Below are positions 13,204 through 21,878 of a DNA stretch of 64,000 nucleotides, piece after piece. The notes beneath the pieces are model-generated. The model saw nothing but the letters and a program-made list of their open reading frames with translations. It did no database searches and was not told the origin of the DNA. A program made the translations under genes and the position numbers. The stretch lies in contig NIVC01002647.1 of NCBI GenBank assembly GCA_002269645.1, forward strand, positions 1-64,000, written 5' to 3'. The number at the start of each line of letters is the position of its first letter. Position 1 is the first letter of the stretch. The stretch is from Macrostomum lignano (taxonomy: Eukaryota).

Positions 13204-14141
13204 CCTGTTATACAGTTTACGAGCGTACATTCTCATCATTTTACACTGATTTCTGACTGCCCAGGTGCCTATGAAGCCCTTAAACACTTGAATAAAACAC
13301 AGCTCCCCTGCGCTTGCCTTGGGCATGTTGCGAATGTCTTCTCTGCTACAACTCCCATTGCTTTGTTTTTATTATCAAATGGCGGGCCTTCTGCCCTTAG
13401 TGTTTTTTTGTAACTAAGATAGTTATTGTACAGAAGAACTGTGCTTTCGTTGTTAGTTTTGTGTTCCTTTCCTGCTTGCTTGTTTCCCTCTAAAAGTATC
13501 TTCTTCTCCTGCCCAGTGCGGCAAGTTATACTCTGGTGAATAATATTCAAATGTATAAGTACATTATATTATGACTAATTTGGTAATGGCTCATTACTTC
13601 TGTTCTTCCTCGATTCACTGCCTGCCTTTCTAGCGGCTCACTAATATTATTACTATTACTGTTATTGTTATTAATAATAAATTGAGATGATTAATTTTTA
13701 GTATATTGGAATAGAGAAAGCCGAGAAAAAGTGTCTACATTCGTGAGTGACCGCATTCAATATTTTCATTTGGATTTGACTCCATTTTTTTTCATTTTTG
13801 CTTTTGTTATTTTGCAATGATGTTGAATTAGGTGCAGATCAGCCTAGCGGCAAACGCATCCGACTCTCTCCTAGAATCTTAGTTTTCTGAACAAAAAACT
13901 TTATAAAGATCAATAGAGCTAAAAGAAAGCATAACATCTTGGTCTGGGAAATCTTAACTTCTTAAAGTCTGCATGCAATAAGATTTATTGAAAATTAATG
14001 TATTATTTATATATACTCGTAGGTGTGCAGACGCATGAAAAAAGGTACTTACAATGTGCATGGATTTACCTGCGTGCCGACACAACACAATATAACAAGT
14101 TAAAATATGCACAAGGTGCAAGGATTTCAAACGTGCAGATT

Positions 14142-14390
14142 TTAAGTTCCCAGACAGAGTCCCAAGCCCGGGAAGAGGCTGTCCGTTTCCTCCGCCAATT
14201 CATCGTGTAATTACGGTATTTCGCGAGCTTCATAATCACGCCGCTCCTTCACGGCCGCATTGTAGGATCTATAATTAAACATTGAAGTATTCACCGTATC
14301 GAGATCCGGTTCGGGGCACCATTGCCGCAAAAGAGTCCCAACTCTGCAGCTTCCAATGTGCTCTAGCTGCTGCTGCTGCTGTTGTATATG
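14142..14390 (-). pseudogene. Decayed small ORF, inverted paralog of 18130-18485
   Basis: LLRQWCPEPDLDT...YNAAVKERRDYEA..*LHDELAEETDSLFPGLGLC; internal TAA at 14211-13. Confidence 0.7.
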
Positions 14391-16252
14391 GTGAACCGCC
14401 CAGAGGGAACACCAATCATCAATACACGAAACTCGTATAGAAGTAGATAGGGGATTATACTCGTACTAATCGTACTAACTAATCGTACTCGTACTAACAC
14501 CTGCTGTTTGCCTGCGTGATTATACAAGTACATATATAAGTATGCAATGTACATATAAAATTTATCACGCTTACGTAGGATGGCGTTTCTACTTGCATAT
14601 TTCTTGTCAGTAGTATAGGCGTATTGGTAATCATTCGCGTTTTTTGCGTCAAATCTGCCTAAAAATTAACAAACTTCTTTGTCCTAAGTGGTGGCAATTC
14701 GTCTGCGGGCATTTATTCTTGTGCTCCTATTATACACTGGAGTCCATTATGTACATCGTCAGCCTCTGTGCGTATCCACCACAACACGAGCGTAACCCCA
14801 AAATAAAGGATCCATGTAATCGAGCCATGCCGGCCCATATGTATACTTTTCTTTATCGGAGACTGGTTAGAATATCTCGAATATTCGGAATGACTTTAAT
14901 TCATACAATAGCCTACAGCTTCTAAAAGCGCGGCCTCTTCAGACCCTTCAAACTCTCTTTCTCTCGCCAAACAATGGGGTGGCGATTGCGTCATCCAAGT
15001 CCCTCCCCTCTGAACAAGACAAGCAGCTTTATAATCACGCAGGCAAACAGCAGGCAAACTTGAAACATTTAAAACTCTTTCAAGTCACGCCTCGCGAATT
15101 CGCAAATTACACCCGCTCCAAAACTATAGTTGGGCAATACGCCCCTATGCCATGATTACATCACCACAGATTCCCCAAGGGTCGATCAGGCCAGCGCCCA
15201 CTTGCGCAACGCTCTGACTTGTGCAACGCCAGGCCCGACCTTCCGGCAATAGGAATGGAAGTCCCCTACGGGGTTTGAATTGAATTGAAATCCCTGGGAG
15301 AGACACTTACGTAACCGCGATTGAGCCTGGACATTGGGCAATCACATCCTCCAGCGGGTGAGCGGACACCTTCAGTCAGAAGTGAAACATTAATCCCATG
15401 TACTTGCATATTTGCATTAATCCCTATCTATACGCTCGTACTAATTTCCTTAATGTGCCTCTATATGTACACTGCATACTTCTATACCGTACCTATGTAC
15501 TTACTGCGTAATGTGCAGATAACGGTTGATTTTGGAGGTGAGGTGGGTGCCAGAGCCAATGCAAATTCAACGCCTATCTATTAATAAATGCATTAGAGCT
15601 CTTCTAATTGGTCCAGACCCTCATTATGATTCATGTAACTCATTATGTAATTCTAATTATATATGTAATCAGTGTACCATTCCCATTTGTAAATTGTGTC
15701 GTACAGAAGCGACCAGTACATATTTCAATATACATGTAGTACGCAGAATTAGCGCTCAACCACCTCTAGCTACTCCACTGTAGCTGTTGTTGTACGCAGA
15801 AGCGCGCGCGCCCAGCCCCCAAGTTTCAATGCATTGGTGTACGCAGGATTAGCTGTTATCATTATCATTACCACAACTGCTACTACTACTGCTACTACTT
15901 CTACTGCTTCTACTGTTGCTGTTGCTACGAGCGTAGCTCTGATGCTGCGATTGCAGCTGCGCCTGCTGATACTCCAGACTCCTTTATATATCCCAGGAAG
16001 AGGATGCAGGGGGTCGCAAATAGAGTGGTGCATCATTTCTTTTTTCCCTGTACTGCATTTGCAGATTAGTGTACGATTGCACACTCAGTCCCCACTTGGT
16101 ATAGAAAAGTTGGGGTCTGAAAATACCCCATCATTTCTGTTCTCATACGGGTCGTAATTGGATCTGAGTGCATCTAGCCAACCGGTAGTGTTGTAGGAAC
16201 GAAAAATGCAGACCGCAGCCTCACCTCCTCGGAGTACAGTCTCTTTCGCGGG

Positions 16253-16262
16253 TATATATAAA
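16253..16262 (+). promoter_or_regulatory. TATA box upstream of the PC4-like ORF
   Basis: TATATATAAA ~115 nt before ATG 16376, followed by an A/C-rich leader. Confidence 0.5.
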
Positions 16263-16375
16263 GGACCACGCAGAAGCTGAAATTTTCAGTAGCAGCGAAA
16301 ATTTCGCTCCGACACTCTCAGTATCAGCGTCAGCAGCAGCAGCAGCTCTCTCTATCTCAGTGAAACTCTGTCAAA

Positions 16376-17075
16376 ATGTCTATTCCACTTGTTGACAACT
16401 ACGTAGTGCGCAGGCCCACATTCGAAACTGATCGAGAACTGATCGAGATTCGGCGTTTCTACACAGACAAGAAAGGCAACAAATAGCACGGTTTTCCTGG
16501 CGTGTTTCTGACTCGCAGCGAGTGGCAGTAGCTCAGGCAGGCGCGCAGGATTATCGAGTCTCTGCGGATCCTCGACTGCTCTCGTCATGAACGGTTTCAG
16601 CTGGGTGAGGGCCATACGATTCTGGAAGTGAAAAAAAAACAGATTTGGCTGCATCGCAACAACCCGTTGCGGCGACGAGAGCGAGCCCTGGAAATACTCA
16701 GTCAAGCTCAACAAAAAATTGTGGACGACTCTGATGGACGCGGACGTTGACTCGCTGTTTGCCTCGCAGTCGCCGCCGCCGCCGCCGCTGCCCAAGACAA
16801 CAACGGCTTCGGAGCCATCATTGTGGTTCAACAGCAACAGCAGCAGCAATGATGGTGACGGCGAGGGCAGCCGCCGCCGCAGTGCTGGCACCCCGCCACC
16901 GATTGAACTGCAGCCGCCGGTGAAGAAGCTTCCTACGACTGACGGCAGCAGCAGCTACAAGTGGTGGCACTCGTTTCCTCCGGACTCGACTGAGCTCGAG
17001 AGCTGGGCTGCCGGCCTGACTGATGAACAGCTTTTTAAGACCCGGCCCATCAGATTGCTGCCTGGGCCGCTGTGA
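16376..17075 (+). pseudogene. Tandem PC4/Sub1-like ssDNA-binding domain protein, intronless and disrupted
   Basis: IEIRRFYTDKKGNK*HGFPGVFLTRSEWQ*L resembles the PC4 IDIR.Y....G...PG.KGISL..EQW..L motif; second degenerate unit KYSVKLNKKLWTTL after a frameshift; TAG at 16484 and 16529. Confidence 0.65.
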
Positions 17076-17610
17076 TCAAGGAGCAGAACAAGCAATTTAA
17101 GCTAATCTGCCGCGACAAGGTCACATGCGTGTCGAGTGAAAATGATTAAGACAATTGCTAAAAAATCTCTTTTAGCGATGACCACGCGTAGTTATAGCCC
17201 ATTGGATGCCTGGCCTGGATGTGCCTCTCCGCCGCATCTAGGCTGCCGCAGCCGCCCCGCGCGACCCAGGACTTGAGCAAAAACAATTTAAAGTTGTTGC
17301 CCAAGACACTGGAGTCCGACTGTGGCGGCTTCAGCTGCTGGGCGTTTTGATGCCATTTCGATGGGTGTTGATGCTGATTAACTCTCAATTGTATAATTTT
17401 TACTTGTGGGAATTTGTTTCTGTGATTATATCAACTCTAATAATGTGAAACTGAAAACCATCTTTTTGAATTGAATAAACTGGCACTGATGATAACATCT
17501 CTGGAATTAAAATGGTCTTATTTCATTTGTTTTGAAATTGAAAATAACCGAGACTTTGAAATTTTATTATTAAAACAGATAGCTATAGATCGCTGTTGTT
17601 GAGTCAGACT

Positions 17611-17714
17611 GACTGACTCGCTGGCTGTGGACAGGCCGGCCGGCAGACTGACTGGCTGGCGGGGGCTGTGAGGCCGGGGGAGCCAATAGGAGGCCGCTCA
17701 GAATCACTATAAAA
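17611..17714 (+). promoter_or_regulatory. Compact Pol II promoter: GC-rich box, CCAAT (17683), TATAAAA (17708)
   Basis: Canonical motif order ~65 nt before ATG 17777. Confidence 0.55.
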
Positions 17715-17776
17715 GAGAGACCCAGCGCGCCGAAAATCTTTTCAAATCGAAATTCGCGATCAACACACTTATCACA

Positions 17777-18485
17777 ATGAACAGCAGCAGCGGCAGCATC
17801 AGCAGCTCCATTGGCGACGAATTCGTAGGCTGGTGCGGTGGCTTTTATTGCGGCAACGAGTGTTGCCAGCCCGGCAACGGTTGTGAATTAATACGCGCCA
17901 ATTAACAATGAAGAATGGGGCGTTGCCACCGCAGCAGCCGAAGAAGCCGCCACCGCCGCCTCCGCCGCCTCCGCCGCCGCAATGTAGAGTCGGACAGCAG
18001 TCTAAATCGGCAGCAGCAGCAACAACATCCGAAGATGAAGAAGACGAGCCGCCGATTGGGTATCAATTTAGCCTCTCGGATGGGGCTGCAGCAGCACAGT
18101 ACTGACGCTGCTAGTGGAAAGGTTGCTGCTGCCGCGGCTGACGACGACGAAGAGGCCGCATACCAAGAATTTTTGCGGCAATGGTGCCGCGAGCCAGACT
18201 TGGACATGGTAAATAATTGCAGATTTTACTATGAATGCATTTTACCCGAAAACTTTTCATTTTCCAACTAAAAACTAATTGCTGATTCAAAATTTCAATG
18301 CATTATAGCGGAAAACTTTCCCCATCCATTCCCTTTTCTAGCTAGCTGACTATTGTTTTGGCAGCCCCTCTGAGGAGCGGGCATACTATGCCGCGAAAAG
18401 GGAGAGGGCTGAGTATGAGGCTGAGCTCCATGATGAGATAGCCGCGGAATTAGACACTTTGTTCCCCGGCTCGGGGCTTTGTTAA
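17777..18485 (+). pseudogene. Small Pro/Ala/acidic-rich gene of unknown function, probably spliced and partly disrupted
   Basis: EFLRQWCREPDLDM|gtaaat ... ERAYYAAKRERAEYEAELHDEIAAELDTLFPGSGLC*; paralog at 14142-14390. Confidence 0.55.
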
Positions 18486-18852
18486 TATTAATGACAATTT
18501 AATGTTGTGTCTGCACGCATTTTTATTTTCATTCACCTTGTACATAGCTTGTTTTTATCAACTGTCGTGTCTGCACTCAATCTAAATTTTCATGCACCTC
18601 GTACTATATCTCGACTTGCTATATCATTAAATGTTGTGTATGCACACATGCGTTATCCATATGCACCTCGCGCATTAGTTTTCAAATAAATTGTTTTGTA
18701 AAATTTGAATATTGTGTTGAGATTTTTACCATTTTTTCGAGTAATAATATTTATAATGAACGAATGAAAAAAAACTATAAAACATTCTGTGTGTAAACAC
18801 TGCGACTGATTATAACCTCAAACTCACCAATTCCAGCTACGTCATCATCATC

Positions 18853-19314
18853 ATGGCTGCTTTAAAGGTGTCGCTGCTGACTGAAGGTGCCCGCTCGCCG
18901 GCCCGCCAGACGATCGGTTCTGTTGGTTACGATCTCTTTGCCTCTGAGGATACTGTTGTCCGGGCCCGGTCGGTTGCGCAGGTGCCTCTCGGAATTTCAA
19001 TCTAAGCGCCTGATGGGACCTACGCTCGGATTGCTGGCCGGTCTGGGCTGGCGTTGCGCAAGTCTATACAAGTGGGTGCCGGCGTGATTGACCCTGACTA
19101 TACTGCGGAATTGACTGTGGTGATATTTAATCATGGCAGTGCGGACTGGTTCATAACTCGGGGCTACCGTATCGCTCAATTAGTTTTGGAGCGTGTATTG
19201 ATTGCTCCCGTAGTTGTAAGGGATCTCTATAGGGGGAATGGCGAAGAGGAGGAGGCTATAATTAGGCCTCAACTTGTTGTTCCCGGCTGTTTTGCTTTCT
19301 GTTTCAACTATTGA
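18853..19314 (+). pseudogene. dut: Intronless trimeric dUTPase with one nonsense codon and a degenerate motif V
   Basis: GYDL, RSGLA, AGVIDPDY, RIAQL motifs in one frame; TAA at 19003. Confidence 0.9.
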
Positions 19315-19834
19315 AATGAAAATATACATGATCTCCACTTTTTCAAATCTAAAACTATGAATGCAATCTTTTTCAGTAAGAATCTCGACTCGTAAGCCTC
19401 TACTAACGGTAGTATAGTGTAATCAGCTACATTTGGTTTTGAGTAATTGAACATATAAATGGAAATATGCATATATAACGTGTTTTGCAAAACTTGGGGG
19501 TTAGTTGACTGATTTGGTAGTAGATGTGATTGTACAACCGCTGGTGCGCACGCACTGACCCACCTTTGCATGTACAGCTGTACACGTAGCAATTAGTGTT
19601 TCGAGTTGGAATTGTACATATACTCTTGTGGGGTTGGCGATTCAAATGCGCAGAGCGGAGGTCGTCCTGTAGATTGGGGATTAATGTAGACACTGTACAT
19701 ATAGAAATTGTCATAGAAGTAGATTAATGCGCAAGTGTACATATAGAAGTATGCACTGTACAATTAGACAATGTGCATATAGAATTGGGGGTAGACATAG
19801 AAGCAGACAATGTACACATACAATTTGGGGTAGA

Positions 19835-20015
19835 TAGGATTAATGTACATATGTGAGTACATGAGATTAATGTACATGTGAGTACATGAGATTAATGTAC
19901 ATATGTGAGTACATGAGATTAATGTACATGTGAGTACATGAGATTAATGTACATATGTGAGTACATGAGATTAATGTACATGTGAGTACATAAATTAATG
20001 TACACATACGAGTAC
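19835..20015. repeat. 26/28-bp tandem repeat (GTACATGAGATTAATGTACAT(AT)GTGA)
   Basis: About 6 copies read directly. Confidence 0.85.
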
Positions 20016-20334
20016 ATATTGAAGTATGCTATGTATATCATGCTTAGGATAGCGTTTTCATATACTACTTACTTCATTTTTCAGATAGTAGTATAATTTG
20101 CGTTTTTTGCGTCAAATCTGCCTTAAAACCCGGCAGTTTCTGCGCGTTACGTAGTTACATGTACTTCGATCTTGCGAAAGGCCTTCTAAGGATTTTGGCG
20201 TTGTGAAATTTCAACCTTAAGAAGCGACCCCTGTCTGCCTCTTGGCTTTAAACAGTTGAGTATACAGTGGACTTTATGGTGGGGAGACAAAGCCAAGAAT
20301 TCAACATGTACATGTATGTCCATTATTTTGAACT

Positions 20335-21164: not shown

Positions 21165-21878
21165 CTATTGCTGCTGCTGCTCCGAGCAGAGTTCCACTCT
21201 CTGCTGCCGCAACAAAGCCAACATCAGGCTGCCTATATCAATGCTGCAGCTTCGGCGATGTCCGCAGCGCAACGACGCATCGGAGAATTTCGAGCAGCTG
21301 GTGACTTCTTTATCGCGCTGCCTAGACATATTCTTGAGCTGGTGTAGACTGTCGCTGCCAACCAGTTTGCTGTGGTTGGACATGTTCTTGGACTTATGTA
21401 ACAGTTCTCTTCCAACCGATTTCGAATTCAACTGTCTAGATTTGTCTAGTCGCTCAACTGGTCTCGACTGATTGGAAATTTTTCTAGACCTGTGTAACCG
21501 CTCCGTGCCAACTACAAGTTTGCTGAGATTGGACACATTCTTGGACTTTTGCAGCTGCTCGACACCGATTGGCTTTGACTTGTTGGACCAATTGATTGAC
21601 TCCTGCAGCGGATCGCGACCGATCAGCTTGGAGCCGCTGTATCGGCGGGTGCGCGACGGTTGGAAATTCGGCTGCGCCGCTGGCGGCATGGTGATGCGTC
21701 GGGACGTCGACTGACGACGAGATGCGGACGTCTTGTAGACGGCTAACAGCACCAAGCCGATGACCAGTATAGTCAGTAAGGTTAGCGACACCGACAGGGC
21801 AATGATAGCCCCGTTGCTAATGGTGCTCATGGCCTCGTTATTCTGGACGCGAGCTCTGCGGACTGGATGGTTCAACAT
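21165..21878 (-). CDS. Probable exon(s) of a single-pass membrane protein with a basic repeated cytoplasmic tail
   Basis: Hydrophobic AIIALSVSLTLLTILVIGLVLLAVY followed by KTSASRR; 3-4 repeats like LHKSKNMSNxSKLVG. Confidence 0.45.
   Translation of the reverse strand: MLNHPVRRARVQNNEAMSTISNGAIIALSVSLTLLTILVIGLVLLAVYKTSASRRQSTSRRITMPPAAQPNFQPSRTRRYSGSKLIGRDPLQESINWSNKSKPIGVEQLQKSKNVSNLSKLVVGTERLHRSRKISNQSRPVERLDKSRQLNSKSVGRELLHKSKNMSNHSKLVGSDSLHQLKNMSRQRDKEVTSCSKFSDASLRCGHRRSCSIDIGSLMLALLRQQRVELCSEQQQQ

Follow-up and report, generated by a model that had tools for sequence, protein, structure and literature searches.

The 64,000-nucleotide (nt) stretch of Macrostomum lignano DNA analysed here (assembly GCA_002269645.1, contig NIVC01002647.1, positions 1 to 64,000; hereafter the window) contains at 15503–20155 what its sequence identifies as a dead, polymerase-deleted A/B chimera of a Polinton/Maverick-derived family. 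In its family form this system comprises two kinds of ~10-kb element, segments A and B, both with terminal inverted repeats and 6-bp target duplications. Segment A carries the polymerase and segment B the integrase and capsid genes, and the two probably form a two-segment, Polinton-derived family whose members complement each other in trans. The original prediction of a decayed Polinton/adintovirus-like element was borne out, the element being multicopy and its fuller copies carrying the pPolB polymerase. The region had been viewed as the cargo of a single large element; instead it is a deleted chimera of the ends of two separate ~10-kb elements. Among the follow-ups proposed at the outset, the search for other copies returned 49 genome matches to the dUTPase DNA, many as inverted pairs, and the search for linked polB located pPolB in fuller copies, with integrase and capsid genes on separate elements.

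Gene content of the two segments

One of the fuller A copies (C157:54556-64414) displays the order repeat, dUTPase, orphan gene, PC4-like gene, divergent pPolB, repeat. Only segment A encodes the polymerase (PF03175 at 60.7 and 46 bits against a cut-off of 25.8), and the polymerase gene is interrupted by three GT-AG introns at positions that are equal in the two lineages of the family described below. UniRef polymerases 99% identical to that of the family bear Macrostomum lignano labels. All three introns appear as joints in contigs assembled from public runs (in 3, 2 and 4 of the 4 runs). Integrase or capsid genes were found on no A element examined. A subtype of A carries the PC4-like protein, the orphan and the dUTPase beside pPolB, and many A copies are without the PC4-like and dUTPase genes. 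In three window-lineage elements (L090, L106 and L141, on C566, C1396 and C260) polB is accompanied by ~4 kb of short unassigned open reading frames (ORFs) that replace the PC4-like, orphan and dUTPase genes.

The PC4-like gene of the window, detected from 16376 as had been claimed, gives a Pfam PC4 match (E 7e-5) that falls below the cut-off in this broken copy, while an open copy elsewhere reaches 25.4 bits against a cut-off of 25. The claim that the protein has two units is supported by the predicted model of the open copy, which contains two beta4-alpha units (predicted local distance difference test, pLDDT, 82.7). The best structural match of the model is Pur-alpha (Z 11.0, root-mean-square deviation (rmsd) 3.9, 120 residues aligned), and human PC4 aligns over residues 1–67 (Z 6.5, rmsd 1.5, 66 residues aligned), the PC4 match of the structure search having E 4e-3 and probability 1.00. 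The protein is thus predicted to consist of two tandem beta4-alpha units of the PC4/Pur/Whirly single-stranded DNA (ssDNA)-binding fold, nearest to Pur-alpha, and DNA binding is likewise a prediction from the model. A word search for a PC4-like domain found nothing, and a profile search returned, at E<=0.001, 300 unnamed proteins, of which many have 2–4 repeats. No mention of PC4 was found in the available portions of PMC8502044, PMC11161782 and 10.64898/2026.10.13.758929. Three monopartite Polintons of the genome (L073, L078 and L121, on C114, C393 and C531) hold a tandem PC4-like homologue directly ahead of the integrase (28–31% identity, E 5e-8 to 2e-6).

The dUTPase of the window is 91–95% identical to family copies, 41–53% to other Polinton dUTPases and 42–43% to the candidate host DUT (C52, C600), so that the possibility, raised at the outset, of a processed host DUT copy failed. 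In the dUTPase tree the window copy falls within the family copies with support of 96/99, and an older relic forms a long branch and was left uninterpreted. The candidate host DUT is likewise without introns in the stretch seen.

Elements of segment B have the same ends as A, lack the polymerase, and carry an integrase, a major capsid protein and putative packaging ORFs. Only segment B carries the integrase (rve 34.5 bits against a cut-off of 32.6), which has a weak C-terminal chromodomain match. The major capsid protein is predicted to adopt a double-jelly-roll fold (model pLDDT 93), its best Foldseek match being the PBCV-1 capsid (E 2.6e-17, template modelling score 0.61), and its homologues bear the name F54H12.2-like. 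The putative minor capsid, protease and ATPase ORFs of B are 26–36% similar to ORFs of monopartite Polintons in the genome which, by position, we take to encode minor capsid, protease and ATPase; in Pfam the B ORFs give weak P-loop matches only. The order of this morphogenetic module is the same across 24 B loci, some of which have internal deletions, and segment B is covered without joints by contigs from 4 of 4 public short-read runs of four studies. No family relatives were found in viral_contigs. Metagenome relatives comprise 12 loci with capsid identities of 31–40%, too short or too distant to reveal an A/B split, and three unnamed capsid proteins (P0068-P0070), 79–80% identical, come without genomic context.

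Ends and target duplications

The terminal inverted repeats of the family begin ACTACGTA and are flanked, at the loci compared, by 6-bp target duplications. They measure ~280–1200 bp, being longer where inner parts are duplicated, and element lengths are mostly 8.3–11 kb, the longer elements inspected holding nested elements or internal duplications where these were identified; the two segments together amount to ~20 kb. All 19 bounded A elements and 16 of the 21 bounded B elements have perfect 6-bp duplications at their flanks (35 of 40 together), and one of these 35 extends to 7 bp. The 40 bounded elements leave out C3085 and C4430, which are repeats of the C2786 insertion site, and C175 and C392, whose right flanks lie outside the fetched DNA. 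As A elements have perfect duplications and no integrase, they were presumably inserted by an enzyme acting in trans.

The family comprises the window lineage (A3, B3) and a sister lineage with ACTACTA ends (A2, B2). Segments A and B of one lineage are alike over the first 31 nt only, the subterminal repeats beyond being unrelated. Within these 31 nt, A3 and B3 ends differ by a mean of 7.9 positions, compared with 8.1–8.2 within a class and 15–17 across lineages, and in the next 40 nt A3 and B3 differ by 29. The nearest B end belongs to the same lineage for 16 of 16 A3 ends and 3 of 3 A2 ends. These comparisons indicate that partner A and B segments share lineage-specific 31-nt ends drawn from one pool.

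The 31-mer is hypervariable in blocks that lie between an invariant ACTAC and a T run (40 elements, for example at 20125–20155 and 15503–15533 of the window). The left ends of 11 window-lineage B copies include 11 distinct 31-mers with a mean of 8.1 differences, and the following 40 nt differ by 0.5; the left and right 31-mers are identical in 31 of 40 elements. Some blocks appear by eye to resemble reverse complements of adjacent blocks. A subterminal motif, GGAGGTG(A/G)GGTGGGTGTCA, follows the 31-mer on A2 of the sister lineage but on B3 of the window lineage, hinting at past swaps of ends between segments.

Separation of the segments in the genome

The genome searches gave 56 family integrase loci (72–100% identity) and 100 family polB loci among the matches listed. 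The best 109 of 160 polB candidates and the best 115 of 1599 integrase candidates were scored, the integrase list extending to unrelated integrases of 35–37% identity, and the element-end pattern matched the genome 173 times (100 matches listed; reversed control 0). Among the matches listed, the 56 integrase loci are all more than 40 kb away from each of the 100 polB loci; three share a contig with polB, at distances of 45, 168 and 466 kb. In the fetched DNA polB was absent within 15 kb of all 24 B loci, as was the integrase/capsid module within 15 kb of all 30 A bins. Exact window-lineage B-type subterminal motifs number 64, and 52 of these form 26 B–B pairs spanning 7.6–14.3 kb. Of the 12 single motifs, some lie in B copies or at contig ends, one at a site without genes, and others in chimeras that carry A accessory genes; no full polB stands beside them in the fetched DNA. 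No full-length member joining the polymerase to the integrase/capsid genes was found in the data examined. Chimeras that join a B-type end to A genes are the window copy, its twin on C89, its paralogue on C19, and a copy on C1438; they are compatible with recombination between segments.

A second lineage and selection on both halves

The sister lineage was initially known as elements with polB and the PC4-like gene only. A matching B segment was predicted beforehand, and ten were then found, with the same gene order as in the window lineage and without polB; nine of the ten measure 10.3–10.6 kb. The gene sets of A and B are exactly complementary in both lineages. Both the A2–A3 and the B2–B3 comparisons are near synonymous saturation (proportion of synonymous differences 0.67–0.71), and the ratio of non-synonymous to synonymous substitution (dN/dS) between lineages is 0.04–0.13, the capsid having 0.04. 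Inside single lineages the polB exonuclease region has a dN/dS of 0.10 (24 copies), and the ratio is 0.25 (7 copies) and 0.09 (5 copies) for the capsid, 0.22 (9 copies) and 0.13 (5 copies) for the integrase, and 0.24 for the dUTPase. The rows 'within2' and '3vs2' for polN1 and polPalm1 were dropped because their identity bins included diverged window-lineage copies. Four of the seven window-lineage capsid copies have a stop in the aligned stretches. The ratios indicate that purifying selection acts on both halves.

Gene-less, monopartite and nested elements

Elements of 7.6–10 kb that have family ends and no family genes comprise L025, L022 and L019 (on C657, C982 and C1526) together with C1299, C356, C816 and C1705. 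Of these, L025, L022 and L019 form near-perfect palindromes and have 6-bp target duplications, and gene-less palindromes of this kind are likely to be snap-back defectives that are still able to integrate. Monopartite Polintons of the genome were considered as a helper and rejected on account of an unrelated polB and different ends: the family polB has no significant match to the polBs of three of them (best E 0.05), and the ends of three readable elements begin AGTAGT. Two copies in which THAP and P transposase sequences lie between 2.2-kb dUTPase-bearing repeats (L017 4287–7768 and L014) had suggested a P-element identity. This was rejected, as the P-superfamily transposon is nested inside a deleted A segment, both long repeats of which hold dUTPase, and has its own 30-bp inverted repeats, beginning CACAGACC, and a 7-bp duplication; its THAP and P transposase frame is open over 941 amino acids (aa) in one copy.

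Proposed cycle and alternative explanations

By analogy with Polintons and adenoviruses, the pPolB of A would replicate both segments by protein-primed strand displacement starting from their shared 31-nt ends, a step modelled on the terminal-protein priming described in the available portion of PMC11161782. By further analogy, the PC4-like protein would coat the displaced single strands, the dUTPase would keep uracil out of the element DNA, and the integrase and capsid module of B would respectively insert and package both A and B. Gene-less palindromes, polB-only minis and A/B chimeras would be template-switching defectives that keep the ends and ride along. A fuller proposal is offered tentatively, with a little less than even confidence, namely that the family represents a bipartite double-jelly-roll-capsid double-stranded DNA (dsDNA) virus in an animal. 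Its two ~10-kb segments would share one polymerase and one integrase, be packaged in particles and have persisted while two lineages diverged, the shared hypervariable 31-nt cassette setting A–B pairing.

Several observations weigh against the two-segment interpretation. No virion, free linear DNA or terminal protein was seen, and a joined copy could have been missed since only part of the polB, integrase and end matches were scored or listed. Chimeras of a B end with A genes would also fit internal deletion of a joined A+B genome, and 5 of 21 bounded B elements are without a perfect duplication. The pairwise dN/dS values are non-independent, and the sister A lineage consists of three elements only. 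The many A copies without PC4-like and dUTPase genes imply that neither is needed in cis on every A, the labels of the minor capsid, protease and ATPase ORFs rest on modest similarity, and the polB intron joints are only suggestive, as the run types were guessed, one of them as DNA.

The closest competitor to the viral proposal, unlikely but to be taken seriously, is that A and B complement each other only as an intracellular two-part transposon whose capsid genes no longer build particles. In its favour, none of the runs listed is recorded as RNA, and many assembled copies have stops or frameshifts, including the capsid copies noted above; the low capsid dN/dS between and within lineages and the retention of the entire morphogenetic module, in the same order, in the 24 B loci argue in the opposite direction. 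It is improbable that both segments arose as defective forms of an ordinary monopartite Polinton of ~20 kb, exogenous or outside the assembly, with a short 31-nt inverted repeat and differing subterminal regions, from which snap-back made A–A and B–B forms. The A/B-ended chimeras constitute the chief evidence for such an origin, to which may be added the gene-less ~9-kb palindromes, implying that snap-back is common, the summed segment size of ~20 kb, inside the Polinton range of 13–25 kb, and the fact that 109 of 160 polB candidates and 115 of 1599 integrase candidates were scored and 100 of 173 end matches listed. This explanation has to contend with the absence of a joined copy among the 56 integrase loci (matches listed) or the 64 B-type ends, with a split and gene order that are equal in two lineages at synonymous saturation, with the uniform sizes of the sister-lineage B elements, and with purifying selection inside each half.

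Still less probable is that A and B are separate parasites without obligate pairing, A a capsid-less pPolB replicon or satellite and B a borrower of host or other Polinton polymerases. The unrelated subterminal repeats of A and B beyond 31 nt and the many monopartite Polintons of the genome, as possible helpers, would suit this explanation; the helper candidates, however, have AGTAGT ends where readable and an unrelated polB, terminal variants are common to A and B within a lineage, and their gene sets are exactly complementary in both lineages. Finally, there is next to no prospect that host genes, a processed copy of the host DUT or an artefact of assembly account for the data. Palindromes in long-read assemblies can be artefacts, and introns are missing from the candidate host DUT, too, over the stretch seen. 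Against this stand the multicopy nature of the element, the distance of its dUTPase from host DUT and its grouping with the family, target duplications with unique flanks, and the coverage of B by short-read contigs of four studies. A two-segment family complementing in trans is the preferred explanation.

Relation to known elements

Like Polintons/Mavericks (adintoviruses; PMC8502044, bioRxiv 2023.08.22.554363), the family has pPolB (pfam03175), an rve integrase, a double-jelly-roll capsid, terminal inverted repeats and a 6-bp target duplication, together with putative minor capsid, protease and ATPase genes. Polintons are described by 13–25 kb of length, terminal inverted repeats of 100–1500 bp and a 5–8 bp target duplication, and are defined by pPolB and an rve integrase in one element (PMC5499653). 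As both enzymes are required together, neither A nor B qualifies alone, and the pair works like one. In contrast to Polintons, no single family element found holds polymerase and integrase together, each is 9–11 kb long, the ends begin ACTAC and have a hypervariable shared 31-mer and segment-specific subterminal repeats, and polB has three spliceosomal introns. A candidate VSR-like motif, picked out by eye within the family polB, recalls marine pPolB2. Alpha adintoviruses are characterised by an OTU domain N-terminal to the pfam03175 polymerase; here the pfam03175 polymerase is present, and candidate Cys and His motifs bearing on the OTU domain were noted by eye at pPolB.

Bidnaviruses and the Drosophila Vesanto virus (PMC8502044, PMC8363768) are likewise segmented, one segment carrying pPolB and the termini of the segments matching or resembling each other, although these are parvovirus-like ssDNA viruses, whereas the present family is integrated and has an rve integrase and a double-jelly-roll capsid. 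Similarly, the Acheta domesticus segmented densovirus (PMC10267136) has separate replication and capsid segments, although such DNA viruses are normally monopartite; this virus is a parvovirus with ssDNA, in contrast to an integrating Polinton-type family with target duplications. Matching termini on complementary segments, expected of a segmented DNA virus, are found here as lineage-specific 31-nt ends.

Non-autonomous Polintons have terminal inverted repeats and an incomplete gene set and depend on a helper. The family differs from these, from transpovirons and from linear plasmids in that no autonomous helper of the family was found, and in its selected complementary halves in two lineages. 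Linearity, terminal inverted repeats, a partial Polinton gene set and helper dependence are features that it has in common with non-autonomous Polintons and with transpovirons and linear plasmids (PMC5499653, PMC11161782).

No description of a bipartite or polymerase-less Polinton, or of Macrostomum Polintons, was found in the literature searched, the scope of which lay outside Repbase, subscription journals and supplements; a bipartite Polinton was likewise absent from the available portions of PMC8502044, bioRxiv 2023.08.22.554363, PMC11131425, PMC11161782 and 10.64898/2026.10.13.758929. A nematode survey retained only blocks with all five core genes inside 20 kb (bioRxiv 2023.08.22.554363), a rule that constitutes a blind spot, as A/B pairs would be missed. 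The contribution made here comprises the concordance of two lineages, the selection on both halves, the shared end-pool analysis and the A/B chimera. If true, a stable split between replication and integration/capsid functions would be a case of segmentation in the double-jelly-roll dsDNA lineage, parallel to the segmented pPolB viruses (bidnaviruses, Vesanto), and would offer a genomic model for the origin of multipartite viruses from complementing defectives. Integration would lift the usual cost of both segments needing the same cell, and the system would be testable in a laboratory flatworm.

The window copy

The window copy has a B-type end on the left (15503) and an A-type end on the right (20155), and these true boundaries replace the limits of 14142 and 20125 assigned to the cassette by the original prediction. 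The many short ORFs that had been regarded as genes are mostly pieces of three broken genes (PC4-like, orphan and dUTPase) and of older minus-strand relics. The left end is a terminal inverted repeat of the capsid/integrase segment (15503–15856, plus strand), 67–80% identical to B-segment ends. It begins ACTGCGTAATG, a single change relative to ACTACG, and has the exact B-type subterminal motif at 15534, while A ends match it nowhere past the first 31 nt. It is followed by a divergent segment-A promoter region (15901–16375), 75–78% identical to the PC4-like upstream region of C157, C1263, C471 and C694. The TATA at 16253 (plus) serves the side of the PC4-like gene and that at 15990 (minus) the opposite direction; the latter faces the polB site of fuller copies, and we infer a tie to polB. 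The tandem PC4-like gene, with its predicted ssDNA-binding, Pur-alpha-type fold, occupies 16376–17186 on the plus strand (~270 aa in open copies) and is disrupted by frameshifts and stops, the first two stops at 16484 and 16529. The window's sole polymerase trace is a 49-aa fragment of the pPolB N-terminal region at 17185–17331 on the minus strand (tblastn 86%, E 8e-25).

The broken Ser/Cys-rich orphan gene of segment A lies at 17683–18271 (plus strand; CCAAT 17683, TATA 17708, ATG 17777) and is 56% identical over 138 aa to the C157 copy (E 3e-29), the open-length gene encoding ~230 aa. Its window piece has no Pfam match, and another copy gives a low-complexity match below cut-off only. The dUTPase, claimed to be intronless and confirmed as such at 18853–19257 on the plus strand (Pfam dUTPase E 5e-30; 91% over 135 aa to the family), has one internal stop (19003), and its C-terminal tail is replaced past 19257. 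The A-type right end region (19258–20155, minus strand) contains an array of 25/27-nt repeats at 19838–20017 and the terminal 31-mer ACTACGTAACGCGC... at 20125–20155. The copy is flanked by GTACTT on the left and TACATG on the right, without a clean 6-bp duplication, and GTACTT occurs again 5 nt past the right end.

The claim that each gene has its own promoter and polyadenylation signal held in part. TATAWAWR words stand ahead of the PC4-like gene, of the orphan (accompanied by its CCAAT) and on the minus strand at 15990, but the dUTPase has merely the non-canonical TATAAAAC at 18776, and no plus-strand AATAAA or ATTAAA follows it. Relative to the window mean, 13.9–20.2 kb holds 17 CCAAT (14.2 expected) and 16 polyadenylation words (21.3 expected), both at chance level, and 15 TATA words (7.1 expected), in part overlapping matches.

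A 99% twin of the window (G000:C89:822001-842000) carries an additional retroelement of ~4.6 kb, which lies in the orphan gene at window position ~18010–18020. The paralogous locus at C19:502777-521659, with flanks of 89–96% identity, shares the chimeric ends of the window copy and has one further A-type end where window position 14742 corresponds. The shared chimeric ends and similar flanks imply that the window insertion is older than that duplication.

Older relics and flanking sequence

Ahead of the element, a minus-strand relic of the 3' end of the segment-A orphan and of the spacer preceding the dUTPase occupies 14050–14400, with 66–73% nt identity to A copies over 14050–14257 and a 12-aa match to the orphan C-terminus at 14298–14333 (E 0.004). 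A degenerate A-type terminal-repeat relic at 14540–14693, oriented like the right end of the element, has its best matches to A-type ends (~70% over 150 nt), and a 36-nt direct repeat (14630–14665 and 20093–20128) is 92% identical. An older, frameshifted dUTPase relic lies at 15110–15394 on the minus strand (tblastn 42% over 113 aa, E 3e-9) and is linked to the plus-strand dUTPase by inverted repeats I1, I3 and I15. The same region holds a 25-nt perfect inverted repeat (14500–14524 and 15030–15054, with 505 nt between). In the right flank, 21165–21878 on the minus strand is an open 237-aa ORF with a predicted hydrophobic stretch, 19-aa-like repeats and weak Pfam matches, which is present on C89 too.

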